Source: Candidatus Bathyarchaeota archaeon (GTDB lineage: Archaea > Thermoproteota > Bathyarchaeia > Bathyarchaeales > Bathycorpusculaceae). Taken from it: a DNA stretch of 64,000 bases. The position numbers and the translations under genes are program-made. Where the stretch lies: positions 32,001-96,000 of the forward strand of contig CAVTZU010000028.1 of NCBI GenBank assembly GCA_963739305.1, written 5' to 3'. Below the pieces are notes generated by a model. That model was not told where the DNA came from. It searched no databases and worked only from the letters and a program-made list of their open reading frames with translations. How positions within the stretch are numbered: position 1 is the stretch's first letter; each line of letters begins with the position of its first letter. Below, one piece after another: positions 12,446-64,000 of the stretch.

Positions 12446-14848
12446 TTAATGACAAACCACATCTATCTGTTGTCTGCAGCCAGCGTTCGGACATCTCAGT
12501 CTTTTCATGTCTTGGTAATATTTGAGAAATGCGCCACAATCAGGACAACTAAAATCCAGATGCAATTCATGAATGGCAATGCAAAATCTCCTTACTTCTT
12601 CTATCGAAACGTTTTCCGCTTCCAGATTATCATGAGACAGAAGATTTCCCATTATTGTTGTGGCCTCCAGTTCTTGGAAGCATTCAGAGGTTTTTTGCTT
12701 GAATGCGCTATCAACTAGAAGTGTTTCCAATCTTGCTTTTGCTGGTGTAAACAAGTCAGCGACAGTGTATCCGCTCGTCTTGAAGATTGGGCGAGCCATT
12801 ATGTCCTCACAAATGTTCTTCAGAAGCCACTCTAGATAACGCCTCCCTTCGTTTGCTGCTCCTGATCTGTCACTTGAACCGATTTTACTCTCTATGTATT
12901 CCCAACGAGGCTTGAAAGGCTCGACTATCGGACCTGTTTCAAGAGTCCATTTAGTTATTTCCATATTCTTGCATTCCCCAGTTATCCCAAAAGCACGTTG
13001 GTTTGCACATAGTTGGTCGTACCATATTGCGTCATGCGTCGTTATGAAGAGCTGATAGTTTCTAAATTGCTCAAACAAGAGTTTGCAGATTAGTCCCCTA
13101 TGCTGTGAATCAATTGTTGTCACGACATCGTCGAGCACTATGAAGTTACAGTCTTTATTGAATTTCTTTGCGAACGCGAGAAAAACACACAGACCCAATG
13201 AATCGAGATGCCCTTCACTTGTAAAGGCTCTCGGGTCCTCTTTGGATCCGAACGATTCAATTTTCAGATCAGTGCTTGCCCTTCGAGCCATTTCAACGTT
13301 AATCTCAACGTTCTTGTGTGGTTCGTTTGGATGAAGCGTTGAATAAAACGTGTTAACGTTTCCCCTGATTGAATCATACACTTCATTCATCTTCATCTTT
13401 TTAGTCTCACAAAAAGCCTCATACACTTTTTTCGCGTCAATGCTTTGTTTCTCTTCTGTGACAAGAGCATCATCAATCTCTCTTAGTTCTTTGACCAGAA
13501 CGCTGACTTTGTTCGCGAGGTCAATCACGTTCATCTTCTCTTTCCAATCCCTTGTGACTCCGATTTCTTTGAACAGCTTTTTGCATTTCGTGCGCGAGAG
13601 TCTTATCAGCCTCTCGACTGTCTTCATATATTCTGCGAATTGATCGACTGACATCTCTTTCTCTAGTTTGAGCTCCTTGGCTAACTTGAGTTTCTCTTTG
13701 AGTTTCGTCAATCTTTCCCGTGCTTTTTCAAGACCTGTGCGTGTCCTGTTCAGCTGTTCAAGTGGCTTGATCTTTTCGCAAACGCTCTCTATGTTTTCCA
13801 AGAGCGAGCCAAGTTTGTCTTCCAGGTCAGAAACACTTTGTCTGACTTCGGTTGCCTCTTTCGAGAGCCCGCTTAATGTCTGAAGACGACTCTTAATCTG
13901 TTCAATCAGTTTTTGTCTATCGACATCCTGTCCGCAGAAAGGGCAGATGCCTCTTTCATCCTTTTCAACAACCTGTTGCCCTTTCACAAGGAAATCCCTC
14001 AGAAACATTTCCTTCTTGGATTTCTCTTCTAGTAATGGCTTCATTTTGGCGTTAAGCTCACTTAGGCAATCGGTAATTTCATCGTCAATAGAAAAATGTT
14101 CGAGTTCTTCTATGGCCTCGTTGAGTTTCAATACCTGCTCTATGCCAGCAGATTCCTTGAAAGTTTTAAGAAATTCGTCGCTAATCTTGCCAGTATCATC
14201 AAACGATGTCAGAGGTGTGAATTTGACCTTGTTGAGCTTTGTATTCAAAGAATCCAAAGCATGTTTCGCGTCCGCAATATCTTCACTTAGATATCCCGAA
14301 ATGTTTGTCAGAACAGTTTCTCTTCTTTCTTTCCTCATTACAAAGTTGCTGTTCAGCTCTTCAGATGCTCTTTTCATGGCAAGTTCAAAATTGTCCAACC
14401 GCTCTACTCCAATAATGCTTGCAATTGCTCGGAATCTTTCTGCGGGAATGCTCGCGATGAACTTGAGAATTTGCGACCTTCGCAGAACAAACGTCCCTCT
14501 TTGACCTTCCTCAAAGTACTTCAGCATTTGTCCTGATGGTTCAGGTTTGGCTTCAAAAGTGCGCTCTAGCGTTACATTTCCTGGATAGAATGCAACCTTG
14601 ATGCTAACATCTTCCTTATTGAAGTTCTTGTGTGGACCATGTTTCGAAAGAGACAGACTCTGGGTTCCCTCACCTTCAAACATAGACAATTTGCCAGTAA
14701 AAAAGAACTCGAATGCCTCAACTATTGAGCTCTTGCCAGTAGCATTCTCTCCCTTGAGAAAGAAGTTCTTACCATCAAGAATCAATTCAAGATCTGAAAT
14801 ACCTCTAAACGCATGTATGCTGACGGATTTAATGCTGGGCATTTTCAT
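12446..14848 (-). CDS. Rad50/RloC-like ABC ATPase with zinc hook, HEPN-like C-terminus and zinc ribbon
   Basis: Walker A GENATGKS, CPFCG hook within a coiled coil, signature TSEGH, Walker B IVLDD, TTHD; C-terminal RYLEWLL..GNLLSH, CPDC..CPNAGC. Confidence 0.85.
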   Translation of the reverse strand: MKMPSIKSVSIHAFRGISDLELILDGKNFFLKGENATGKSSIVEAFEFFFTGKLSMFEGEGTQSLSLSKHGPHKNFNKEDVSIKVAFYPGNVTLERTFEAKPEPSGQMLKYFEEGQRGTFVLRRSQILKFIASIPAERFRAIASIIGVERLDNFELAMKRASEELNSNFVMRKERRETVLTNISGYLSEDIADAKHALDSLNTKLNKVKFTPLTSFDDTGKISDEFLKTFKESAGIEQVLKLNEAIEELEHFSIDDEITDCLSELNAKMKPLLEEKSKKEMFLRDFLVKGQQVVEKDERGICPFCGQDVDRQKLIEQIKSRLQTLSGLSKEATEVRQSVSDLEDKLGSLLENIESVCEKIKPLEQLNRTRTGLEKARERLTKLKEKLKLAKELKLEKEMSVDQFAEYMKTVERLIRLSRTKCKKLFKEIGVTRDWKEKMNVIDLANKVSVLVKELREIDDALVTEEKQSIDAKKVYEAFCETKKMKMNEVYDSIRGNVNTFYSTLHPNEPHKNVEINVEMARRASTDLKIESFGSKEDPRAFTSEGHLDSLGLCVFLAFAKKFNKDCNFIVLDDVVTTIDSQHRGLICKLLFEQFRNYQLFITTHDAIWYDQLCANQRAFGITGECKNMEITKWTLETGPIVEPFKPRWEYIESKIGSSDRSGAANEGRRYLEWLLKNICEDIMARPIFKTSGYTVADLFTPAKARLETLLVDSAFKQKTSECFQELEATTIMGNLLSHDNLEAENVSIEEVRRFCIAIHELHLDFSCPDCGAFLKYYQDMKRLRCPNAGCRQQIDVVCH

Positions 14849-14999
14849 TCCTTCCCTTAAAGACTTCCAGAAGTTTCTCTTTTGAGTCGAGCTCGTTGTT
14901 TTCCCAGAGCCTTTTCAGCCCAGCTAAAACGTTGGCGGAGACTCTTTCCGCTTCAATCTTCCTGAGGAATTGCTCCAAGACCTCTTGTTCAATGCCCAA
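14829..14999 (-). CDS. 56-aa helical protein overlapping the ATPase start (not in the ORF track)
   Basis: MGIEQEVLEQFLRKIEAERVSANVLAGLKRLWENNELDSKEKLLEVFKGRNENAQH; TTG start after GGTGTGA. Confidence 0.7.
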   Translation of the reverse strand: MGIEQEVLEQFLRKIEAERVSANVLAGLKRLWENNELDSKEKLLEVFKGRNENAQH

Positions 15000-15688
15000 A
15001 TCATCACACCATTATCGTGTTTTCGGTTGCGACAGACAGAGTTCAACTATTTCTTTTATCTTCTATTAGGATTTTTGGTTTAACGTGCTTCTCGGAGATA
15101 TCGCAAAGCGCAGTGCGTGCGCCTAAACCCCTAAAAATGAGCGCAAACCCTACGATCTATTTTTCTTAACAGAACAGCGCGCCGCAATCTTCAATTACCA
15201 TGCTTTTCACATTTGTTCGCACTTGATGTTACAATAGTGGACAAACGATCATTTCGGCGCCGATATACCGCGCGTGATACAAACGTTCAGTTTTCATTCA
15301 ATAACACTTATCTATCTGTGTACGACGGCACCTCTTTAAGGGGGGTATGGAGGTGAAAACGGACGAAATCCAAGTACAGGAAACTTTTGCCAAGTGAAGT
15401 TTACGTCGGTGTATCTGGCAGAACTGGACTTCCATATGGTAGAGTCAAATGGTCCAGGAAAAGACGATAGACTGCTTCATCGCTTTTGCCCAAACGGAGT
15501 GTTTCGCGCACTGAAGGCAACACGCGCTGGTGGATGCAAGCGCTACAAGTTTTCTGCAGATGAGTGCACAGAAATCTTAAATTTCCAAGGCAACAGAAGA
15601 CAAACGAGAGGTCCAGGTTGAGTAAAAGGAGAATGATTTGTGGAGATTTAGCCATTGTAGGAATAGTAGCAATGGGACAAGCGGTAAT

Positions 15689-16651
15689 ATGGAAAGCAAG
15701 ACAATCGCAGCTAGCCTCTTTTCTCTATTCTTAGTTCTCAGCCTGGTTTGCTCTTGTTCGGCTCAGAACGAAACTAACACAGCCCACGTATCGGACAAAG
15801 CAGTTTCATTTGTTCTTTCAAACTTCAATTCGACAATAGGCTTATGTTCTGAAGTCCCACACGGGACGCCAAACAGCCAGAATTTCAATGGCGACGTTTT
15901 CTGGATAACAAGCGATAACCTTCTAGCATATGCACTTCTGCAACAGTATAACGCATCAGTGGCCAACACCATACTGCAAACCATGAAAGCCTATGCAGCA
16001 GCTCATACCGACTTGCCAACAGATAGTCGGGGAATTCCCGTAAGCTATAAGCATGAACCCATCATAAACGATTCTTTTCCAGATGACTTTCAACCAAGAG
16101 GATACGTCTATTGCGACCTAACTTTAACTGACTCGTATGAAGTCAAAATTGAAGTGAATAACGGTTCGATCTGGCCAGACTGGCAAAACTATTCTGACGA
16201 ACTGGCATGGATGGGTTTGAGCTGTCTTAACAAAGGGGGCGCGCTCTATTATTCTCAGGCGCAGACACTCTATTATCAGATGATGAGTATGTGGGATGGC
16301 AAAGGATTCAATGACACACAATATCGCCATCTTGGATATTACGAAACATTCAAGCTAGGTCTAGCCATTTACCTAAGAAAAGACTTGGGCCTAAATCAAA
16401 CACAAGCAGAACAGGAGATGGATTCAATTATCCAACTATGCAAGAAAGAAAACGGTGGAATCTGCGTCAACTACAACGACAATTTAGACACTTGGGGAAA
16501 TCCAAATACAGAAACCACCGCATTAATTGGATTAGCTTACACCGAAGTGACTAACCCAATTCCAGAGTTTCCATCATTCCTAATTCTGCCACTATTCATG
16601 ATAGCAACGCTTCTAGCAATCACAGTCTGCAAGAGAAGACGTGTGACCTGA
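15689..16651 (+). CDS. Secreted alpha/alpha-barrel-like protein with PEF-CTERM-like signal
   Basis: Signal peptide; SDNLLA, WDGKGF, YETFKLGL, NTETTAL; C-terminal IPEFP-TM-KRRR. Confidence 0.75.
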   Translation: MESKTIAASLFSLFLVLSLVCSCSAQNETNTAHVSDKAVSFVLSNFNSTIGLCSEVPHGTPNSQNFNGDVFWITSDNLLAYALLQQYNASVANTILQTMKAYAAAHTDLPTDSRGIPVSYKHEPIINDSFPDDFQPRGYVYCDLTLTDSYEVKIEVNNGSIWPDWQNYSDELAWMGLSCLNKGGALYYSQAQTLYYQMMSMWDGKGFNDTQYRHLGYYETFKLGLAIYLRKDLGLNQTQAEQEMDSIIQLCKKENGGICVNYNDNLDTWGNPNTETTALIGLAYTEVTNPIPEFPSFLILPLFMIATLLAITVCKRRRVT

Positions 16652-17024
16652 GCGAGCCCGATTTGAAAGCAAGCGTCGATATAGAAGGCTGCTCCGCTAG
16701 AGAGATGCACATTCAGAAGACGCCAGAAAACGAAAAATGTTGAACTTTCCAGAGCCAAATAGCGCCGCAGTCCGAAACTCTCTCACCACGACGATACTTT
16801 TTGTGGTGCTTGATCGCGAGTCAACCGTTATGAAACTATTTGCTGAGGTTGAGAACGAACTAACCACTACTGAATCTCTTGTAACACTCGAAAATTGTTC
16901 AACTTTTTACGACCCAATAGCAGCGCAGTTCTGCCTAGGTTCCGAGCTTCCGTACTCTTTACGACCAAGTCACGTAGAACAAACGATTTTTGATTTGATT
17001 TGGCTTTGCTTAACTACCTCCTCC

Positions 17025-17213
17025 GAGAAGCCACGGCTTCTCTCGGAAGTCAAACGACGTTCGTCTTCTACATGATTCCTACCGAGTGGTATGTGGGGAG
17101 TAGCCCTTTCAGAGCTGCCCAGGCTAGGCAGACGACGATGGAAAAGCGAGTTCTCGATCTGAAAAAATGAGGCATCTTCGCTATTACCTCTTACCGAGAA
17201 GTTCGAACTTCTC
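17025..17213. repeat. Pair of 18-bp palindromes GAGAAGCCACGGCTTCTC (17025-17042) and GAGAAGTTCGAACTTCTC (17196-17213)
   Basis: Both are flanked by CC..TCGGA; the second lies 40 bp beyond the integrase stop. Confidence 0.85.
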
Positions 17214-17253
17214 TCGGAGCTAAATTGGGATCGAGGTGCAAAAAAAGAGATTC

Positions 17254-18378
17254 TTAAGCCTCGTTTGAGAGCAAGAGTTTTCCAGAGGGCAACGTGGCTA
17301 CGTAGCGAAAGCCTTCTTCTAATTTCTGCCCAAGTTCTGACTCTTTGACGATGACTTGGCATTTTCCGCTTCCAGGCGGGCACTGTTCTGGGTTCTTCTT
17401 GACTTTCTGCCTGAGCATTTGTAATTCTTGCATCCGTTTGAGAACGTCTTCGGGCAAGCGTTTTTTCAACTCTTCGATCTCTTTGGCTCTCTTGTCGAGA
17501 TCGATGTTCCGTGTAAAGCACGTTAGTTCTTGGACTTTCGCGTAGTCGGTCCTTAGAGAGTCCACCGAGACGTATGCGCTCTCGCTCGTGACTTTGCCGA
17601 CGATAAGCTTGAATTTCTCTGTGCTCATAACCGATGCGAGACGGTCGATTAGGAATTTCCTTAGTGCGTGAAACCTTATCCGCTTATCACCTGTCGCTAG
17701 TCCAGCTTTCTTTACCAAACGCTTGACGACGCGTGAAAGCATGATTTCTGAGCTATAATCTAGCATTTGGTCTGACTGCGAAGTTTTCGCTTCGCGCGCG
17801 AGTTTTTCGAGCATCTGCTTAACGATTGGAACCGCGTCGTAATCGAGAAATGGATATGCTTTGACGGATTCTTTTCCCGTGTTCAGGGGGCCTATTCCGA
17901 TCGGTGCTTCGCGCGAGAGGTACGGCTCGAAGTCGCCTCGACGCAGCTTTAAGAAATCTGACGGACGCAGGCCGAGACTCTTGCCGACTCTGATGATATA
18001 CTTCTCTGGCAAGTCGCCTACGTCGTCTAGTTTCCGTAAGTCTTCTGTCGAAAACCTGTAATCTTCTTGCGCGTTGTGCGTTTCTCCGAGCCGTTTTGTC
18101 TCAGTTCGCCTAAATTGCAGTTGAGTTCTGTGGTAGCTAAAGAAACTCCGAGCAGCCGTTATTATGACTCTCGCTGAGTTCGGTGTTAAGCCGCTGTCCA
18201 GTAAGGCCTGTTTGCAAGCCATGACTTTTCGTTCCCAAGCGTACTTTACTTGGTCGTCGGTCGAGCTAACTGACTGCTTGCGATCTGCTAAGATTTCGTC
18301 GCCTGTCATCTTGACGAATCTTAAGAAATGGATAAACGCTTCTGAGTAAGTTCGACTCGTAGACTTTTTCTGAGCCAC
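17254..18378 (-). mobile_element. Tyrosine recombinase/integrase
   Basis: GLRPSD (R), TGKE (K), FHALRK (HxxR), LIVGK, ESAY (Y); N-terminal SAM-like core-binding domain; the frame stays open upstream to about 18438. Confidence 0.92.
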
Positions 18379-18494
18379 TAGCCATTCGTTCGTCGCGTTA
18401 TCGTTTGGGTATGATATTCTTTCTTTGTTTCTCGTCTTCTAACTTCCTTAAGAAGACTAAAGGCACTGCCTCTCGTATAGATTTCCGACAAATT

Positions 18495-18522
18495 AGGTTA
18501 GAAATTTTAAGATTTCTAACAT
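18495..18522. promoter_or_regulatory. 11-6-11 inverted repeat (dif/operator-like) upstream of the integrase
   Basis: AGGTTAGAAAT TTTAAG ATTTCTAACAT; 10/11 arm symmetry. Confidence 0.6.
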
Positions 18523-18670
18523 ACAAAGTCGGTTTGCTTTGTAGCTGCGCCGTAAGAAAAGTTGACTCGCGCGCGCGAATGAGTAGGATTTTGAGTTTAT
18601 GTTTTCATATTTTTTCCTGTCCTGCATTTTAAAATATGCGCACAAACATCTATTCTAGTGGGAAACTACC

Positions 18671-19573
18671 ATGCCCATAAACGAACTTGACCTCCTTCTA
18701 ACTTACAAATGCAACCTAGAATGCGATCACTGCTTTGTCTTCGGCAGCCCAAATGCAAGAGGGGTAATGAAAATTGCTGGCATACGAGAAATACTGAAGG
18801 AAGCAAAAAAGATCAGGAGCATTGACTGGATATACATTGAAGGTGGCGAACCTGTTCTTTACTATCCAATTCTCTTGTGGGCGTTGCGTGAAGCAAAGAA
18901 GCAGGGGTTCAAGACTGGCTTTATTACGAATGCTTATTGGGCAACGTCGATTGAAGACGCAAAAGAATGGCTGAAACCTATTTCAGAAATAGGCATATCG
19001 GACGTGATAATAAGCGATGATCTCTTCCATTACGGCAAGGAAGAAGAAAGCCTTTCCAAATATGCTTTTCAAGCAGCTAAAGAGTTAGCGGTGCCTGCTA
19101 GTAACATCAGTATAGAGCAACCCAAAGAATATATGGCTGGGAAAGAATGGAAAGGGAAGCCTGTCACAGAAGGGGCTGTGCTATTCAAAGGAAGACCTGC
19201 TGAAAAACTCGTCGAAGGCTTGCCGAGGAGACCGTGGCAAGAATTTGACAAGTGCTTAGACGAGGATTTCTCCAACCAGAAGCGGGTGCACATCGACCCG
19301 TTTGGTTATGTTCACCTGTGTCAAGGCATAACCATGGGAAACATGAAGAAGACCCCGCTTCACCGATTGTTTGAACAGTTCGACCCACACAAGCACCCTA
19401 TATGTGAACCAATTCTAAATGGAGGCCCAGCTGAACTTGTCAGAACATACCATGTTGATCACGAAGAAGGCTACGTGGACGAATGCCACCTATGCTATTC
19501 AACCCGGCTGAAACTGCGAAAGATATTTCCACAGATTCTTGCACCAGACCAGATGTACGGAGTCTTCACTTAG
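18671..19573 (+). CDS. Radical SAM protein
   Basis: CNLECDHC motif, EGGEP, TNAYWA, C-terminal Cys cluster. Confidence 0.93.
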   Translation: MPINELDLLLTYKCNLECDHCFVFGSPNARGVMKIAGIREILKEAKKIRSIDWIYIEGGEPVLYYPILLWALREAKKQGFKTGFITNAYWATSIEDAKEWLKPISEIGISDVIISDDLFHYGKEEESLSKYAFQAAKELAVPASNISIEQPKEYMAGKEWKGKPVTEGAVLFKGRPAEKLVEGLPRRPWQEFDKCLDEDFSNQKRVHIDPFGYVHLCQGITMGNMKKTPLHRLFEQFDPHKHPICEPILNGGPAELVRTYHVDHEEGYVDECHLCYSTRLKLRKIFPQILAPDQMYGVFT

Positions 19574-19594
19574 AGCACGCGCAGAAAAAAGGAA

Positions 19595-20446
19595 TCATGG
19601 GTAGTGCTGGTTGAAGTGGCCGGCTAGGATGATGGCATCGTAGATGTCGATTGTGTTGTCACCGTTGATGTCGGCGTTGACATTCCAATGCAAATTGCCC
19701 ACGTGGGTGTTGAAACCTCCTGCAAGCGTTATCGCGTCATAAATATCCACGGTGAAGTCGCCATTCACGTCGCCTGGCATGGTCAAGACCATGGAGGTGC
19801 CAGCTGTCAGATTGCCTGCAAGTGCCCCTATGTTGCAGTTGCCATAGGCAAAGCCTGTGGTGTTCCAAATGAATTGGACGGTTGCGGAGTTGTCAGTTGC
19901 TAAGGTAACGTTTTGTGATCCTAGGATAGTTGTGTTAGCGTAGGCTGTGACGTTGAAGGTCTCACTTTGGTTGCCCATGTTCATGAGCATTACGTTCACA
20001 GGCAGTTGACAACCTTGACCAACAACATTCTTAGATGGCGCAACGCTCATCACAGCGCTCGCGCTGCACAGGCTGCCATTTATCCAATCTAGGAAATAGG
20101 TTTGTGAATGCTCATCAAAACTAATCGTTCCGTTGATTACAACCATGTTCCCGACAACAAACCCTTCGGGAAATGTGCATCCCAGTTGCCCATTAAAAGT
20201 CAAAAACATAAAAGAACCACATGGATTCGGGTCAAGGCTTGGGTCAATGCTGTCTACAATTATGCCAGCGTAGACCGCGCTCACATTAGCGTAGCTTAAA
20301 GTACCGACCACGGTGTAAGTCGCCACAGTCGCGCGTGCGCGCGCACCCCCTAGGCAGGCTACTAAAATGATACAGATTATTCCAAGCGCGATAAGGACGC
20401 CTTTGCTGGCGATTTTCGTTTCTTTTGTTTCATTCACGTTTGACAT
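19595..20446 (-). CDS. Mosaic surface protein: N-terminal TM, OB-like segment, CARDB/Ig-like domain, dockerin-like repeat
   Basis: SKNVVGQG..NMGNQSETFNVT; GDVNGDFTVDIYD..ADINGDNTIDIYD. Confidence 0.8.
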   Translation of the reverse strand: MSNVNETKETKIASKGVLIALGIICIILVACLGGARARATVATYTVVGTLSYANVSAVYAGIIVDSIDPSLDPNPCGSFMFLTFNGQLGCTFPEGFVVGNMVVINGTISFDEHSQTYFLDWINGSLCSASAVMSVAPSKNVVGQGCQLPVNVMLMNMGNQSETFNVTAYANTTILGSQNVTLATDNSATVQFIWNTTGFAYGNCNIGALAGNLTAGTSMVLTMPGDVNGDFTVDIYDAITLAGGFNTHVGNLHWNVNADINGDNTIDIYDAIILAGHFNQHYP

Positions 20447-57263: not shown

Positions 57264-58232
57264 ATGATTCCGGTTGAAATTTCGTTTGTCAGAAAGTCGT
57301 ATGGTGATTTGAAGGCGGTCGATGGAGTCTCCTTTTCTGTTCAGGAAGGTGAGGTCTTCGCCCTTCTTGGCCCAAACGGAGCGGGTAAGACAACGCTGAT
57401 AGAGATTCTGGAGGGCTTGCGGAAAAGGGATGAAGGCAATGTGAAGGTGCTGGGTCTCGATCCTTGGGGGAACGGCTATGTGCTTCACAGAAGAATCGGG
57501 GTTATACCGCAGGATTTTACGTTCTTCGACAAGCAGAATCCGAGGGAAGCACTGGAATATTACGCTGCTCTTTTTGGGGTGAAAATTGATGCAGATCAGA
57601 TACTGCGGGAAGTGGTTTTGGACGATTCGGCGAATGTTCTTTTTGAGAACCTTTCTGGTGGGCAGAAGCAGAAGCTTGGTCTCGCGCTTGCACTAGTGAA
57701 TTCTGCCGAACTTCTTTTCCTAGACGAACCCACCACGGGACTTGATCCGAATGCGCGAAGGTCGATCTGGGATGTGATAAGAGGGCTGAGGAGCAAGGGC
57801 CGGACGGTAATTCTAACTACTCATTACCTTGATGAGGCTGCGCAGCTTTCAGACAGGGTAGCCATCATGGATCATGGACATGTCGTAGCGATGGGAACTT
57901 CCGATGAGATCATCGAAGCTCACGGCTCAGGGGAAAGACTGGAAATACACGGAACAGAGGAGTTGGCCGCTTACCTCAAAGCAAACACAAACTTGAACGT
58001 CCAATCTAACGGGAAGGGTCTGATCAGTATAGCAATCACTCAGAAACGCGATGCACTGACAGCCTTGACAGCTGTTGAACGATCTGGGCTCGAATGGCGA
58101 GACCTGCATACTCGTCGCGACAGTCTGGATGACGTATTCGTGAAACTTGTGGCTGGGAGGATTGATGAGAAAGGCGAGATAAGAGTCGAAAACACTGGTA
58201 GCAATTCGAATGGTCAGGGGAGGCGAAAATAG
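57264..58232 (+). CDS. ABC transporter ATP-binding protein
   Basis: GPNGAGKT, LSGGQ, LDEPT, TTH. Confidence 0.96.
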   Translation: MIPVEISFVRKSYGDLKAVDGVSFSVQEGEVFALLGPNGAGKTTLIEILEGLRKRDEGNVKVLGLDPWGNGYVLHRRIGVIPQDFTFFDKQNPREALEYYAALFGVKIDADQILREVVLDDSANVLFENLSGGQKQKLGLALALVNSAELLFLDEPTTGLDPNARRSIWDVIRGLRSKGRTVILTTHYLDEAAQLSDRVAIMDHGHVVAMGTSDEIIEAHGSGERLEIHGTEELAAYLKANTNLNVQSNGKGLISIAITQKRDALTALTAVERSGLEWRDLHTRRDSLDDVFVKLVAGRIDEKGEIRVENTGSNSNGQGRRK

Positions 58233-59327
58233 ATGGCTAATGCACGAAGAATCATTTCTGACCTCCGATTGTTTGGTCGTGGCTACCTTAGAAACGCAGC
58301 AGGCCTGTTCTTCGGACTAATTTTCCCTGTCATCCTCATACTCATCTTCGGAGCGATTTTCTCATCGGGTTTTTCAGGATCAATTACGCTCTACTATCAG
58401 AACCACGACGGTGGGCAGATCTCCACATCTTTTCTGAACACGCTCAACAGCACAGGCACCGTTAAATTAGTTTCAGTCAGTGATTCGGAGAACTTCTCTC
58501 AATATCTGTCAGCCCATTCCGCTTCGGATGGATTGATCATACCCCCTGATTTCTCGGCGAACTACTTGGCAGGCCAGCGTGTTAACGTCACGCTTTACGG
58601 TAACCCATCTCAAAGTTCCAGTTCAATCGTGATTGGAACCGTCACTGGAGTGATAAACGGGTTCAACTTGGCTCGCTACGGAGGCTCATCGATCATCGGA
58701 ATAAGTCAGACTACCGCTAATACTCAGGTGACCAAATACATCGATTTTCTCGTTCCAGGCCTCGTCGGCTTCTCAATACTCGTAAGCCCGATGTTTTCTC
58801 TCGTCAACATATCATCTGAATACAAGAGAATAAAGCTGTTCAAGCAGTTGTCGTTAACTCCTCTAACCAAGATCGAGTGGCTAGCGTCGAAGGTTCTCTT
58901 TTACATCCTTTTGTCGGCAAGCTCATTTCTCCTGATGACTGTGGTCGGAGTGTTTGTCTTTGGGGCACACATCGTGCTTTCACTGTGGCTAATACCATTC
59001 CTCGTATTGGGACCGATGTTCTTCGCATCGCTGGGTATGCTGGTTGGAACTATCTCTAAAAGCACAGAAACCGCCAGTGTCGTAGGAAACATCATAACGT
59101 TTCCGATGATGTTCCTCTCAGGCACGTTCTTCCCGATCACGCTCATGCCAACATATCTTCAATACTTCGCGCATGTCCTGCCCCTATTCTACATAATAGA
59201 TGGACTCAACGGCGTCATGATTTACGGCAACTATGTGCAAGCACTTATCGACTTGGCCGTCGTTGCAGCAATCACGATAATTGCGTTCGTGGCGGCAGCA
59301 AGACTATTCAAGTGGAGAGAAGACTAA
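58233..59327 (+). CDS. ABC-2 type permease
   Basis: YIDFLVPG, PMMFLSGTFFP. Confidence 0.95.
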   Translation: MANARRIISDLRLFGRGYLRNAAGLFFGLIFPVILILIFGAIFSSGFSGSITLYYQNHDGGQISTSFLNTLNSTGTVKLVSVSDSENFSQYLSAHSASDGLIIPPDFSANYLAGQRVNVTLYGNPSQSSSSIVIGTVTGVINGFNLARYGGSSIIGISQTTANTQVTKYIDFLVPGLVGFSILVSPMFSLVNISSEYKRIKLFKQLSLTPLTKIEWLASKVLFYILLSASSFLLMTVVGVFVFGAHIVLSLWLIPFLVLGPMFFASLGMLVGTISKSTETASVVGNIITFPMMFLSGTFFPITLMPTYLQYFAHVLPLFYIIDGLNGVMIYGNYVQALIDLAVVAAITIIAFVAAARLFKWRED

Positions 59328-59751: not shown

Positions 59752-60510
59752 CTACATGATATATGGCAGAAGTCTTGGCAGGATGTCGCCCAAAGCTCTG
59801 TAGACAATGTATGTTAGGGTCGTTCCACCGAGAAGGTAACCTCCGTACTGAGTGAATTGGGACATGAGGCTCTGAGCATAGTTTGCTGCAGTCCAACAGT
59901 TGATTGCCGAACAAGCTTGAACGAAGAACATTTGTAATTGTTGGTCAAGGTATGCTTTGCAGAGGTTAATTGATGATAGGCTGCCTGAGTATGCTTGAAT
60001 ACACCGGCTGTTCACACAGGAATAAGCTGTGAATGAAATCTGTGCTTTGCAATCCCAAGTAGTAGTTCCGACGACAGTGAAGTAGCCTATCAGTGAACAG
60101 GGCCATCTTCCGTTCACGTTGGACCACCTGTAGAAATCCATTTCAAGGACAAGATTTCCGTTGCTCTTAGCTGTTATGTAGATTTCACTTCCATCAGGAC
60201 GCCAATATCCACCAGAGATGGTAAATGTCGCATGAGCCGATTGAGTCATCAAGAGACCTAGGATAAATGGCAGCAATGCGAAGGCCAACACCCGAAATGC
60301 CTCAGTTGCTTTCAAAATTCTTTCCTCCTTCGATTTCTTGTCCAGTCTGTTCATTTCTGGTCCCGCTAGGACCGTCGCCTTGAGGTCGGCTGGACAGACT
60401 TGCTTGAACCCTGTTTTTGACCTCCCAGTTGCCGCCGGCGGTTGAGGCCAGGACACATTTAGACGCCTCTTTTCGAACTGGGTTTTCAGAAAAACTGGAG
60501 CGAACAGCAC
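59752..60510 (-). CDS. Secreted Cys-rich protein with hydrophobic C-terminus
   Basis: Signal-like LAFALLPFILGLLMTQSAHA; 7 Cys in the mature part; the true start is probably near 60354. Confidence 0.6.
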   Translation of the reverse strand: MLFAPVFLKTQFEKRRLNVSWPQPPAATGRSKTGFKQVCPADLKATVLAGPEMNRLDKKSKEERILKATEAFRVLAFALLPFILGLLMTQSAHATFTISGGYWRPDGSEIYITAKSNGNLVLEMDFYRWSNVNGRWPCSLIGYFTVVGTTTWDCKAQISFTAYSCVNSRCIQAYSGSLSSINLCKAYLDQQLQMFFVQACSAINCWTAANYAQSLMSQFTQYGGYLLGGTTLTYIVYRALGDILPRLLPYIM

Positions 60511-60522
60511 ACAGATCGTACA

Positions 60523-60798
60523 TCAGTCGGTCCCTCCAATGTAACCTTGAAGCTCATAGTCTTCTTGCAGTTTCGCAGATGATCGTCTTCTTTTGATAAT
60601 AGAGACTTTTTGAATCGAAACTATTCTGTTTCCTTTGATTTCTGTCTCATAAGCTCGTTCACCGTGATCATCTAGCAAAATAACTTTAGCAACTGTTCGG
60701 TCGTTGTCACTCGCGGTACCGTCTGAGGTTGCTATCAGTATGCTGTCAGTACGTGCCCCATTCTGAAGTCTTGGCCTTTCCTGGGCATTCTGTTTCAA
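60523..60798 (-). CDS. Hypothetical protein
   Basis: 91 aa ORF in tandem with its neighbours. Confidence 0.5.
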   Translation of the reverse strand: MKQNAQERPRLQNGARTDSILIATSDGTASDNDRTVAKVILLDDHGERAYETEIKGNRIVSIQKVSIIKRRRSSAKLQEDYELQGYIGGTD

Positions 60799-60863
60799 TT
60801 TTCATCCCTCGCTGATCTGAGCGGTGAAAACCCAGCAAATCTGATTCATCTGTCAGCCACCGC

Positions 60864-61049
60864 CTACCTTGTGTACTGGGATGGATCTGGGATGGTTCTG
60901 TCACTAGCACTCCCGATTAGGAGGGCTATCTCTGCCATAGCCATTTGCGGAAAATCTTTGAGAACGTCAAGTCTGCCTGAGAAACCTGTGGCTACCACTA
61001 TGTCTTCGTAGAATATAACATAGTACTGAAGCACGGGCGTTATTTTCAT
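60864..61049 (-). CDS. Hypothetical protein
   Basis: 61 aa ORF. Confidence 0.35.
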   Translation of the reverse strand: MKITPVLQYYVIFYEDIVVATGFSGRLDVLKDFPQMAMAEIALLIGSASDRTIPDPSQYTR

Positions 61050-61440
61050 GATTCTTAGGATGGCTCCATCTTTGTCGGCAGTTGGCGAAAGTCAACATTG
61101 CGGCCTTTCGTATCATCCTGTCCCTGTGGGTCATCAAGTAATTTCTTTGGGCTATATCGAGATCGAAACTGATTTTTGCGCTAAATTCAACCAATACGTT
61201 TGTCATTTTTCGTTCCCAAATCCTGATGATGTTATCGAGTAAACATAACGATGTCCCACACAAACGGTGGATGTGAATAACCTTTGGTGTCGCGATGTAA
61301 CAGAAATCTTGAAAGCAACGTGAAAGGTCACAGCATGAAACGAAATGTTGAGAGACACGACGAAATGTTGCAGAATTGAACAAAATGTCAATCAATGCGA
61401 CTTTATGCAGCCTTAATCCTATTCAGGGCGTTGGCGGATA

Positions 61441-61893
61441 TTGATGCGTGCAGGGATCAAAATGAAACGAAGTTGCTCTAGAACCTTGCTGATGCACTTG
61501 AATGTTGTCACTCTGCCCCGACTCAAAGGAAACTTAGAATCCGTCTTTGCTGATGATGAACAAGACGCCAAGCATCTCGTTTCAGATGCTAAAGGGTTCA
61601 GCAATGTGATTATTCTTAGGAAGGTCGAGTCCATTGATGGTGTATTCGTAAGACTGCCCAACGGGCAAAATATCGGCTCGTTAGGGGTGATGTTGGATTA
61701 TCTGGAAAAATCACATGTTGATGTCGGCGCGTATAGTAATGGCAGAGAATGTCCTTTTTATCGATTCGTCTACACTGATTTTTACGGTCCTAAGCAGGTG
61801 CGCAAGAAGATTTATGAGGTCGTGGCTCCCTCAATAGCTTCACTCGAGCCATGTTACTCGTTCCTCAAGAAGTACTTTGGTGGTAAAGATTGA
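61441..61893 (+). CDS. Hypothetical protein, translationally coupled to the next gene
   Basis: Stop overlaps the TTG start at 61890. Confidence 0.6.
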   Translation: MMRAGIKMKRSCSRTLLMHLNVVTLPRLKGNLESVFADDEQDAKHLVSDAKGFSNVIILRKVESIDGVFVRLPNGQNIGSLGVMLDYLEKSHVDVGAYSNGRECPFYRFVYTDFYGPKQVRKKIYEVVAPSIASLEPCYSFLKKYFGGKD

Positions 61894-63695
61894 CCGAGGA
61901 AAAAGCTGAAGCACTTCCGATAGACTATTTTGCGTCCATTGGAATTGGAAATCGAATTCTTAAGTTGTTGCGCGATATTCCCTTTGAAGAAGCTCGTTTG
62001 GGCGGATATACTGAAACTAAGTTGAAGAAACTTCTTTCAAATTACAGACGACAGCTGATTGCGAGGAATTTGGTAAGATCAACAAAACCTGCACAAGAAG
62101 AACAGAAGTCTGAAGCTTCTGGGAAAGAGTCGAAGAGTCACGGCAAGAGGTCGCTCTATGAAGAACTTGAAGCACTGGAAGAATCATGTCAAATAGAAAT
62201 TCGTAGGGAAGAAGGAGAACCTCCTCGTTACAGCTTGAGTAACAATGCGCTATTCTACATTCATAGTCTATTTCCAACCGCACTGAATTTCCATACGGTG
62301 GCGGAGAGATGCATAAAAGCCCCATCGTTCAAATGGAGCCCACGTCCAATAGGAGAGTCTGAACTCCTTCTGGATGAGATAATCTTGGTCCCAGGTTCTC
62401 TGATACTTGCAGGGGAACATAGTGTATTGCTGGGTCAGCCTGCCATAGTCTTACCAATACCTCTCCATGTAATGGTTCACGCGACGGTTTACCAGTGCAA
62501 AAAGACCACGGAGGTTATTAAGCTCCCCCCAACATTCCCATCTCCGAACTCTTTGATCGGAGAAATAAGTACGTTTCCAGGAACGCCAGAACGCAGTCGT
62601 ACTCAAGATTATAAATTCAACGAGCAAGTGAAGTCGGTTGTGGATCTATTTCAGAAGAAATTAATAGCCTTTAACGAGAGCTCAAATTATTATGTCGTGC
62701 TGGACATCCGGAGTCAAATCCCCCCTTCTGTCGGTCTCGGTAGCAGCGGAGCATTATGTGCTGCCTTGGCAATCTTGCTTGATCGCATAAAATATTTCGG
62801 GGACAAAAGTCCAATCGATAACCTAAATCAGAAAGATCTGGGCAATCTGTTCGACGACAAGAAGTCTAGACTTATGGAGATATTTCTCAACGCATCGGAA
62901 TTCGAAGCAGTTGTCCATGGAGAAAGCTCCGGAGTTGGACCGTTCGCCAGCTTGGTCGGAGACGACTGTTTCACGCCTTTATGGTATGATTTAGGTGTCA
63001 GACCGGATGATAAAGTTGCCAAAGGAAAAAGTCGACTGAGTCAACACTTGAATCGAAGGAACAAAGGAGCGAAGTGCACATTAGACCTGAAATGTAAGAG
63101 AGGATCTGAAGAGGCCAGGAGATATCTGAGCAGATATTTGGGATTAGCCGCTGTCTATACGACTCAAAGTCGTCCAGAGCTAAAGTCAAAACAAGCCGAA
63201 TCTTCGTACTGGCATTCTTTAGGAAGACCTGACTGTCGCCGCGATTTCTTTGCGATTACACAGAAGTTGTGGGACAACTTATGCCATGTAAACAAAGAAA
63301 GCGAAGCTGATGATGACATACAAGATGTAATCACTTGCGTCAATCTTTTCGGAGGGTATGAAGAGGGATATCTGAAGATGTTGCGCCAAGAAAGCGAAGC
63401 GACGCCTCGAGAACTAGTATACCACATGCGCGGATTCGGTCTAGGGGCAAAGTACGTAGGCGTAGGTTTTGGGGGAGATATTGTTGTGATTGGCCGAAAG
63501 GAGAAGTTAGGAATGATGCTATTTCCAAGTTACTTCCCCGTGCACTTTAGCAGTGTAAATCTCACTGACGACGAGAAAGTAACTCCTTCGATAGACGTGA
63601 AAGCACGGCCATTGATAATTCAAAAAGACAAATTCGTGGAAGAACTCATGCCCCAATTCATGAAACGCGCCCAACGGGCTTATTTGAGCTACTAG
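61890..63695 (+). CDS. GHMP (mevalonate kinase-like) protein with about 165-aa N-terminal extension (possible winged helix)
   Basis: PGSLILAGEHSV, SQIPPSVGLGSSGA, EAVVHGESSGVG, GAKYVGVGFGGD. Confidence 0.85.
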   Translation: MTEEKAEALPIDYFASIGIGNRILKLLRDIPFEEARLGGYTETKLKKLLSNYRRQLIARNLVRSTKPAQEEQKSEASGKESKSHGKRSLYEELEALEESCQIEIRREEGEPPRYSLSNNALFYIHSLFPTALNFHTVAERCIKAPSFKWSPRPIGESELLLDEIILVPGSLILAGEHSVLLGQPAIVLPIPLHVMVHATVYQCKKTTEVIKLPPTFPSPNSLIGEISTFPGTPERSRTQDYKFNEQVKSVVDLFQKKLIAFNESSNYYVVLDIRSQIPPSVGLGSSGALCAALAILLDRIKYFGDKSPIDNLNQKDLGNLFDDKKSRLMEIFLNASEFEAVVHGESSGVGPFASLVGDDCFTPLWYDLGVRPDDKVAKGKSRLSQHLNRRNKGAKCTLDLKCKRGSEEARRYLSRYLGLAAVYTTQSRPELKSKQAESSYWHSLGRPDCRRDFFAITQKLWDNLCHVNKESEADDDIQDVITCVNLFGGYEEGYLKMLRQESEATPRELVYHMRGFGLGAKYVGVGFGGDIVVIGRKEKLGMMLFPSYFPVHFSSVNLTDDEKVTPSIDVKARPLIIQKDKFVEELMPQFMKRAQRAYLSY

Positions 63696-63708
63696 AAGAA
63701 TAAAGACC

Positions 63709-64000
63709 TTGTCAAAAGTCACGGTAGTGTCTCATCCAATTCAAGGTTTGGTCAAATATCACGGTCTCAAAGACCCTTTGAAAAGAATACCTTTTCATGA
63801 TTCTATATCAGTCTGCGTGGAAGGTCTTGCAACAAGAACCACGGTCGAAATAATGGAAAATAATGCTCCCGATTACATTTGGATTAATGGTTTCAGCCTT
63901 AAGGGTTCAGCAAGAAGACGCGTTGAACTTGTTCTAAACATACTGAGAAGGAAAAGCCCGAACCAAATGCGGGATAAAGATTGTGTCGCAAAACAATATT
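63709..64000 (+). CDS. mvaD: Phosphomevalonate/diphosphomevalonate decarboxylase, N-terminal part (probable +1 frameshift at 63952-63955)
   Basis: Manual translation MSKVTVVSHPIQGLVKYHGLKDPLKRIPFHDSISVC matches the haloarchaeal-type HPIQGLVKYHG..P(Y/F)HDSISV motif. Confidence 0.88.
   Translation, partial: MSKVTVVSHPIQGLVKYHGLKDPLKRIPFHDSISVCVEGLATRTTVEIMENNAPDYIWINGFSLKGSARRRVELVLNILRRKSPNQMRDKDCVAKQY

Follow-up and report, generated by a model that had tools for sequence, protein, structure and literature searches.

We analysed a 64,000-nucleotide stretch of the genome of Candidatus Bathyarchaeota archaeon (GCA_963739305.1, contig CAVTZU010000028.1, positions 32,001 to 96,000), hereafter the window. 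Near its right-hand end lies a gene for a 601-residue protein (P0001; 61890..63695 including the stop codon, forward strand) that joins a predicted winged helix to a domain of the GHMP-kinase fold. The gene is preceded by an overlapping open reading frame (ORF) for a 143-residue protein of no known family, c143 (61462..61893, forward strand), and followed by a phosphomevalonate-decarboxylase-like (MvaD-like) gene, the 5' part of which (63709..64000, forward strand) begins 13 nucleotides past the stop codon and which runs on to G000:C28:96678, G000 being the window's genome. To the left of c143, an intergenic region (61222..61461) separates it from a small divergent ORF, c122 (60873..61221, reverse strand). 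A sequence-only reading had described the 601-residue protein as mevalonate-kinase-like, lacking both key catalytic residues and fused to a putative winged-helix domain, and had proposed either a metabolite-sensing transcription regulator or an enzyme with new chemistry.

The 601-residue ORF is open throughout and starts with TTG, which overlaps the stop codon of c143 by four nucleotides within TTGA. This start is sound, as the homologues have theirs at the matching place, where it is ATG and the overlap reads ATGA. In 5.8 billion proteins, a word-indexed search found 11 at E <= 1e-3, one of them the window's own. The others were eight full-length relatives (570-614 residues, 42-64% identity), P0011 (567 residues, 30% identity) and a weak match to a kinase-decarboxylase fusion, giving nine full-length homologues in all (567-614 residues); one of the relatives is labelled in the database as a hypothetical protein of Candidatus Bathyarchaeia archaeon. 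Ten family members, 29-66% identical to the query, make up the alignment used throughout (A1). The majority-residue fraction in A1 is 0.60-0.67 in the two halves of the N-terminal domain and 0.69-0.76 in the lobes of the GHMP domain, but 0.37 at residues 59-87 and 0.42 in the linker at residues 128-160. Both domains are therefore under constraint, as they are conserved at 0.60-0.76, unlike the linkers.

The GHMP-kinase-fold domain covers residues ~161-580 (62370..63629, forward strand), as delimited by Pfam, Foldseek and VIA-align. The Pfam family PF00288 scores 31.1 bits against a cut-off of 22.3 and matches all 10 family members. Alignments place motif I at residues 168-170 (PGS; 62391..62399), followed by GEH at residues 175-177, then motif II, the P-loop GLGSSGA, at residues 282-288 (62733..62753), the loop SSGVGPFAS at residues 346-354 (62925..62951) and motif III, GLGAKYVGVGFGGD, at residues 517-530 (63438..63479). 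Invariant across the 10 sequences of A1 are P168, S170, G175, GLGSSGA, F338-E339, SGVGPFAS and most of motif III. Among PDB sequences, the family profile matches human (E 9e-10) and rat (E 2.5e-9) mevalonate kinase best, and the profile alignment pairs their aPGKviLhGEH with vPGSlilaGEH, and their IHGnPSGvD with IHGetSGvGPFAS. Lys13 and Asp204 are catalytic in mevalonate kinases; in the window protein, Ser170 stands at the Lys13 position and Gly350 at the Asp204 position, each invariant in 10/10 members. What is kept comprises the equivalent of Glu193 (E339), the P-loop serines and motif III. The substitutions are not due to chance, because they hold in 10 members that are as little as 29% and at most 66% identical to the query. 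The motif pattern given in the sequence-only reading, with GLGSSGA and GEH kept but PGS and SGVG substituted, is thus present in full and aligned to mevalonate kinase, and its suggestion to ask whether homologues share the substitutions has a clear answer.

Structure prediction led to the same fold. The full-length AlphaFold2 model, built from only 10 sequences, has a mean predicted local distance difference test score (pLDDT) of 70 and a predicted template modelling score of 0.72. Foldseek gave mevalonate kinase 2r42 as its best match (E 5e-11), and the relatives found by Foldseek and VIA-align are mevalonate kinases, galactokinases and mevalonate diphosphate decarboxylases. Over residues ~144-580, VIA-align reached Z 20-23 to GHMP kinases, for example 3k17 (Z 23.2, root-mean-square deviation (rmsd) 3.7, 318 residues aligned) and the M. 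mazei mevalonate kinase (Z 21.7), with galactokinases and mevalonate kinases at Z 21-23. Mevalonate kinase is the nearest GHMP subfamily by sequence, structure alone being unable to separate the subfamilies.

Membership of the enzyme family proper is another matter. The curated mevalonate kinase model TIGR00549 is the best NCBIfam match of the window protein, yet it scores 66.2 bits against a cut-off of 163.05, and NF003036, also for mevalonate kinase, scores 37.8 bits against 403. G000 has a separate gene for a canonical mevalonate kinase on contig C1 (277.8 bits) and two AcnX-family genes at other places (456 and 422 bits); PMC11052028 names AcnX as the family of the archaeal phosphomevalonate dehydratase. 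On these scores the 601-residue protein is not the housekeeping mevalonate kinase. A third GHMP-like frame, of 311 residues, was seen on the contig of the window but outside it, at G000:C28:4218-4502 (L003); it matches the mevalonate kinase model at 40.8 bits and the MvaD model at 26.6 bits, both weak.

The absence of Lys and Asp extends well beyond the family. An exhaustive profile search of 1.84 billion representatives gave 1654 proteins at E <= 1e-3, of which 110 reach <= 1e-10 and 17 reach <= 1e-30. We aligned 159 other proteins (P0003-P0161) to the A1 profile; 109 could be aligned at both catalytic positions and 50 were unaligned at one or both. Neither Lys nor Asp is found in 96 proteins, with a median length of 619 residues, while both occur in 10, with a median of 361 residues, the canonical size; three more have the Asp only (median 366 residues, range ~360-640). 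As the matches were selected by likeness to the family, these proportions describe its neighbourhood, not GHMP kinases at large. The proteins without the pair share P[GAS][STA] in motif I, a GL(G/N)SSG P-loop and an SSGxGPFxS loop, the SSGVGPFAS of the window protein being an instance of this signature, and most of them (P0013-P0107 and others) are 450-850 residues long. By these alignments, loss of the Lys/Asp pair marks a large GHMP-like clade and is not peculiar to the window protein. A FastTree phylogeny of the GHMP domain is unrooted and lost the canonical Lys/Asp sequences to a coverage filter, and we base no clade claims on it. The clade is unnamed and has no curated family: of 12 members compared with NCBIfam, none attains a curated cut-off. 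A search of the ESM Atlas with the GHMP part returned only mevalonate-kinase-like clusters. Some databases name the relatives 'mevalonate kinase'.

Clade members carry a variety of additional domains. A subgroup (P0011, P0013-P0017 and P0021) has a long N-terminal extension. In a Pfam scan that covered 24 of the aligned proteins, P0023 is fused to PNP_UDP_1, a nucleosidase-like domain (E 7e-9), and P0029 has the same domain below the cut-off (E 9.7e-4); P0049 is fused to CHAT (E 1e-8), the Nostoc protein P0055 to EAD4 (E 9e-16) and P0031 to a methyltransferase (E 5e-9). The PNP_UDP_1, methyltransferase or unannotated partners are C-terminal, and CHAT or EAD4 is N-terminal.

The N-terminal domain of the window protein was placed at residues ~12-127 (61923..62270, forward strand) by two AlphaFold2 models, VIA-align and Foldseek. 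The modelled elements are helices at residues 19-28 and 32-36, a short strand at 40-41, helices at 42-58 and 89-98, a hairpin at 102-105/113-116 and a last helix at 118-127. A separate model of residues 1-144 has a pLDDT of 73, rising to 85-92 in the helices. Compared with 48,161 PDB representatives by VIA-align, this model gave best matches of Z 8.2-9.9, led by RosR (6ez1; Z 9.9, rmsd 3.7, 86 residues aligned) and TubR (Z 9.8). Among the 50 matches listed, most are winged-helix proteins, also including PadR, MarR, SmtB/ArsR, histone H5 and ORC domains. Since Z values of 7-8 are usual in VIA-align even for models that have no clear counterpart, the case for a winged helix lies in how uniform the list is and how much of the domain is covered, and not in Z by itself. 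By sequence profile, the family matches the winged helix-turn-helix (wHTH) regulator PH1932 at E 0.1, a weak match, and the distant relative P0013, named by the Joint Genome Institute (JGI) as an HxlR-family regulator, has sub-threshold matches to MarR_2 (E 1.6e-4) and TrmB. Between helix 2 and the recognition helix lies an insert rich in Lys, Ser and Glu (residues 59-87; 62064..62150, forward strand), recognised from pLDDT, conservation and alignment: its pLDDT is < 50 at residues 67-85, and its conservation is 0.37 versus 0.60-0.67 in the flanking helices. The insert varies in length across the family and is absent from P0011, P0013 and P0015, in which the helix-turn-helix is uninterrupted when the sequences are read by eye. 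An hhalign comparison does not support a relation between the N-terminus and the EAD4 domain that P0055 carries (probability 0.4%). Altogether, the predictions support a winged-helix fold for the N-terminal ~130 residues. The helix-wing pattern noticed in the sequence-only reading is in this respect borne out by two models and the fold searches, with weak backing from sequence families.

The neighbourhood of the gene could be read in six contexts: the window, genome G018 (L017), the metagenome contigs L018, L019 and L020, and a Nitrososphaerales metagenome-assembled genome (L037). On a seventh contig, L021 (1.6 kb), only part of the gene is present. In all five contexts that include upstream sequence, a c143-type ORF of 139-143 residues lies directly upstream and overlaps the main gene. 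We regard c143 as an obligate partner that is coupled to the main gene in translation. The ATG start of c143 was set by comparison with homologues, and its Nitrososphaerales counterpart is 27% identical (BLASTP E 4e-6). A profile search with c143 found only seven clusters; these pair with GHMP clusters by the size of their longest contig, and one NCBI record has c143 and the GHMP gene under adjacent locus tags. Neither c143 nor c122, nor c150, another divergent small ORF, has any match in Pfam, NCBIfam, PHROGs or PADLOC; the ESM Atlas holds no usable match to c143, and a PDB profile search with it returned only a designed Rossmann-type protein (E 0.06).

On the divergent side of the locus, c122 was recognised by tblastn, its homologues having 109-122 residues. 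Three loci carry it (the window, G018 and L019), and c150 occurs only in G018 and L019. The intergenic region at 61222..61461 is a candidate promoter or operator. Aligned across the same three loci as c122, it contains the conserved blocks GATGTGAATAAC (61270-61281), GTCACAGCATGAAAC (61327-61341; GTCACAG..TGA.AC) and AACAAAATGT (61379-61388), as well as a 27-nucleotide direct repeat at 61322-61348 and 61362-61388. The first two blocks occur once each in the 2.3-Mb genome, and among the loci fetched the blocks are not found near unlinked decarboxylase genes, which are described below. These conserved blocks could be operator sites or merely core promoter elements. An RNA element in the region is not supported either, with no Rfam match at E <= 1 and a consensus fold of only -9.9 kcal/mol. 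Further left, at 59752-60798 on the reverse strand, lie two ORFs of 252 and 91 residues without a Pfam or PHROGs match; the left border of the cassette in G000 differs from that of G018 and L019, as these two ORFs replace their 150-residue ORF. An ABC (ATP-binding cassette) transporter ATPase (322 residues) and then an ABC-2 permease (364 residues) occupy 57264-59327, upstream of the cassette and with no evident link to it.

A decarboxylase-like gene follows the main gene in four of the six contexts: the window, L018, L019 and the 30%-identical branch L020. Where the gene is intact, its product reaches 268-281 bits with NF040704 (cut-off 475); against TIGR01240 (cut-off 171.35), the L019 copy reaches 171.4 bits and the L020 copy, at 155.1 bits, falls below. 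The best relative of solved structure is the mevalonate-5-phosphate decarboxylase of Anaerolinea thermophila (E 4e-47), and alignment to 6n0x shows that the GSGSAxRS and LDxGP motifs, with their Asp and Arg/Ser, are retained. PMC11052028 reports phosphomevalonate decarboxylase in Bathyarchaeia and Nitrososphaeria. Related but unlinked decarboxylase genes (51-56% identity), with no winged-helix gene nearby, are found in 15 of the 100 nearest relatives of G000. G018 has the unlinked type, on another contig, and in G000 the cassette copy is the only one. In five of the nine loci read (L028-L036), the unlinked gene adjoins ribosomal stalk genes (L10/P0, 60S acidic protein), which were identified by Pfam for L030 and by eye for the others; this neighbourhood is unusual but recurrent. 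In G018, a CRISPR (clustered regularly interspaced short palindromic repeats) array of at least 15 repeats (~37 nucleotides, spacing 74-83) lies ~850 bp downstream of the gene pair (L017, G018:C2; array at 13495-14600), followed by Csa1, Cas1, Cas4 and Cas3-like genes (14485-19985). Around the gene in L037 lie unannotated genes and one for an AAA+/TPR protein. Past the end of the window, L004 9119-14895 (G000:C28:97119-102895) encodes a methyltransferase, an AMP-binding-like protein (below the Pfam cut-off), and nitroreductase-family, YcaO and ThiF-family proteins, a layout that we take to resemble azoline-type peptide modification clusters.

In the assembly, the decarboxylase-like gene and c122 are each split into two frames, c122 near 61073-61087. 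Contigs of four DNA runs from one peat-metagenome study were compared with 60800-64000; the runs may include the source sample of the genome and are not independent of the assembly. The assembly has one extra base at 63948, which is missing in three runs (X3 has no contig there), and without it the decarboxylase-like gene is an intact ORF of 322 residues. In one run, CT added after 61081 restores the frame of c122; the same run has T>C at 61071. Both frameshifts look like assembly errors because short-read contigs contradict them, and because each of the two differences causes a frameshift, the genome may hold more small indel errors. Within the main gene, the read variants are substitutions only (L24L, S157F, L160F, L222L, I223F, S547N and D580D). 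At 62555-62556, GA reads AT in all four runs (L222 silent, I223F), and the assembled letters are perhaps a minor variant or an error.

The gene is rare and patchily distributed. Searched with the A1 profile, 12 of 101 genomes, that is G000 and its 100 nearest relatives, match at E <= 1e-10, but the full-length protein is present in only two, G000 (922 bits) and G018 (898 bits), the latter of the same family but a different genus. The other ten score 40-47 bits with frames of 326-349 residues, the size of a mevalonate kinase. None of the 10 same-genus genomes has the full-length gene by this profile, and class-wide only 2 of 401 genomes match at E <= 1e-18. A family-profile scan of viral contigs found no relative, and neither did an initial family-profile scan of genome contigs.

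To explain these observations, we tentatively favour a one-component regulator whose kinase-derived domain senses ATP together with an intermediate of the mevalonate pathway and which works with c143 as its partner, a reading we regard as possible rather than probable. A winged helix would be fused to a sensor descended from a mevalonate-kinase-like GHMP kinase. The kinase-derived domain retains the whole Mg-ATP site, namely the P-loop, the Ser and Glu ligands and motif III, and has lost the Lys/Asp pair, the pair that activates the acceptor hydroxyl. Because the ATP site is kept and that pair is lost, we infer that the domain may bind ATP and mevalonate or mevalonate 5-phosphate without normal turnover. 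Occupancy by the ligand would then be passed to the winged helix and to the apparently obligate c143. The regulator would probably act on its own three-gene operon, made up of c143, the 601-residue gene and the decarboxylase-like gene, as well as on the small ORF on the divergent side, presumably through DNA binding by the winged helix. As a result, the decarboxylase branch of isoprenoid-precursor synthesis would be switched on, beside the canonical mevalonate kinase and the AcnX-type genes. Both options in the sequence-only reading, the metabolite-sensing regulator and the enzyme with new chemistry, fit the domain architecture, the Lys/Asp loss throughout the family and the separate canonical kinase; the missing Pfam wHTH match, the insert and the acidic recognition helix weigh against simple DNA binding. 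The obligate c143, the decarboxylase-like gene downstream and the clade-wide extent of the loss go beyond that reading.

Several observations weigh against a DNA-binding sensor. The alignments behind the two structural models are shallow (10-12 sequences, pLDDT 70-73). Foldseek places wHTH regulators at the top for the N-terminal model, yet all at E >= 0.2, and no Pfam wHTH family matches any of the 10 family members at E <= 1. The disordered insert, ~29 residues long, sits where the turn of a helix-turn-helix is expected, and the recognition helix of the window protein is acidic (LYEELEALEE). In the intergenic region (61222-61461), no inverted repeat or operator palindrome was found, and identity between loci (52-69%) does not exceed that in the adjacent coding DNA (57-84%). 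The decarboxylase gene, the supposed target, is absent downstream in G018 and in the Nitrososphaerales L037. As for the missing catalysis, the invariant Mg-ATP motifs fit an active enzyme equally well, and a catalytic base is dispensable in certain GHMP kinases, for instance homoserine kinase. Relatives of the same clade, furthermore, are fused to conflict-system domains.

The points on catalysis lead to a different explanation, in which the protein is an active small-molecule kinase with non-canonical chemistry, either without a general base or with a phosphate or carboxylate acceptor. Together with the decarboxylase-like enzyme, it would form a two-step accessory route acting on mevalonate or a related hydroxy-acid, and the winged helix would serve autoregulation or dimerisation, making the protein a bifunctional enzyme-regulator. 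This would account for the invariance of E339 and the Mg-ATP motifs down to 29% identity and for an SSGVGPFAS loop as conserved as an active-site loop. The layout suits co-transcription with a decarboxylase homologue that looks catalytically intact, and the three Asp-only relatives indicate that certain GHMP enzymes can do without the Lys. However, both mechanism-defining residues are gone, and no acidic or basic residue conserved in the aligned loop evidently replaces them. A canonical mevalonate kinase is already present in the genome, the coupled decarboxylase is missing from two of the six contexts, and an obligate small partner and a DNA-binding-type domain are atypical of pathway kinases. 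We consider this explanation, the main rival to the regulator, rather doubtful. It is most improbable that the gene encodes just another ordinary mevalonate kinase, or that it is decaying and without function. The 'mevalonate kinase' labels on some relatives and the two neighbours that look frameshifted in the assembly speak for such a reading, but the protein lies far under both curated mevalonate kinase cut-offs and lacks both catalytic residues, the ORF is intact with both domains conserved in 10 members, the read variants are confined to substitutions, and the short-read contigs contradict the frameshifts of the neighbours.

The fusions in the wider clade and the scattered occurrence of the gene could also point to a conflict or defence module. 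In such a module, the GHMP domain without Lys and Asp would act either as a switch dependent on ATP or as an effector that modifies metabolites, controlled or targeted by the winged helix and c143, and the decarboxylase would be secondary. EAD4, CHAT, PNP_UDP_1 and methyltransferase domains among the fusion partners are consistent with such a role, as are the patchy spread (2 of 401 genomes of the class, none of the 10 of the genus), the CRISPR array with cas genes ~850 bp from the G018 pair, and the unannotated genes and AAA+/TPR protein around L037. On the other hand, no family of PADLOC-DB 2.0 (2023) matches P0001, c143 or the two small neighbours at E <= 1, PHROGs gives no match, and no relative was found in viral contigs. 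The link to the decarboxylase is seen in four of six contexts, on both sides of the family's deepest split; a CRISPR array nearby was seen only in G018, and the N-terminus is unlike the EAD4 region in the hhalign comparison. A defence role is, in our estimate, quite unlikely.

Returning to the one-component regulator, we also entertain a broader proposal, which we think unlikely in its full extent. Gal3p of Saccharomyces cerevisiae is reportedly a galactokinase paralogue of GHMP fold that senses ATP and a metabolite and acts on transcription through a protein partner. The whole Lys/Asp-less clade might consist of prokaryotic, Gal3-like, ATP-gated small-molecule sensors, repeatedly recruited to winged helices for the control of metabolic genes and to EAD4, CHAT or nucleosidase domains in conflict systems. 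For G000, the winged-helix form and c143 would make up a switch in the style of Gal3/Gal80 that reads a mevalonate-pathway intermediate and turns on a phosphomevalonate-decarboxylase bypass; it would then be the first regulator dedicated to the synthesis of isoprenoid precursors in archaea. The catalytic Lys and Asp are lacking, with the ATP site kept, in at least 96 clusters at 50% identity, and settling whether these proteins are sensors or enzymes of new chemistry would correct many 'mevalonate kinase' annotations. The same answer might account for the fusions of the clade to conflict-system domains. The mevalonate pathway feeds all archaeal membrane lipids, and to our knowledge little is known about its regulation in archaea; a candidate sensor-regulator tied to a pathway gene would make this control experimentally approachable.

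Literature searches, with supplements outside their scope, returned no description of a winged-helix-GHMP fusion or of a clade lacking the Lys and Asp. Among known systems, mevalonate kinase (EC 2.7.1.36; human/rat 2r3v/1kvk, M. jannaschii 1kkh) has in common with the window protein the GHMP fold, GEH, the P-loop, the equivalents of Glu193 and Ser146, and motif III. In contrast to mevalonate kinase, the window protein has Ser for Lys13 and Gly for Asp204, and with ~165 extra N-terminal residues and several insertions, it measures 601 residues against about 300-390. ROK repressors (NagC, Mlc and XylR) and the archaeal regulators RbkR and TrmB combine an N-terminal winged helix with a kinase-like or sugar-binding sensor. 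The window protein would resemble them as a winged helix joined to an effector-sensing module in a one-component regulator, a likeness of logic and not of descent; their sensors have the ASKHA, riboflavin-kinase or TrmB fold rather than GHMP, and no sequence relation was seen. Gal3p, for its part, is eukaryotic and derived from a galactokinase, lacks a DNA-binding fusion, and works with Gal80p, a protein that bears no relation to c143. What it shares with the proposed regulator is the use of a GHMP fold as a sensor that acts through a partner and not through catalysis, which is again an analogy of logic, not of descent.

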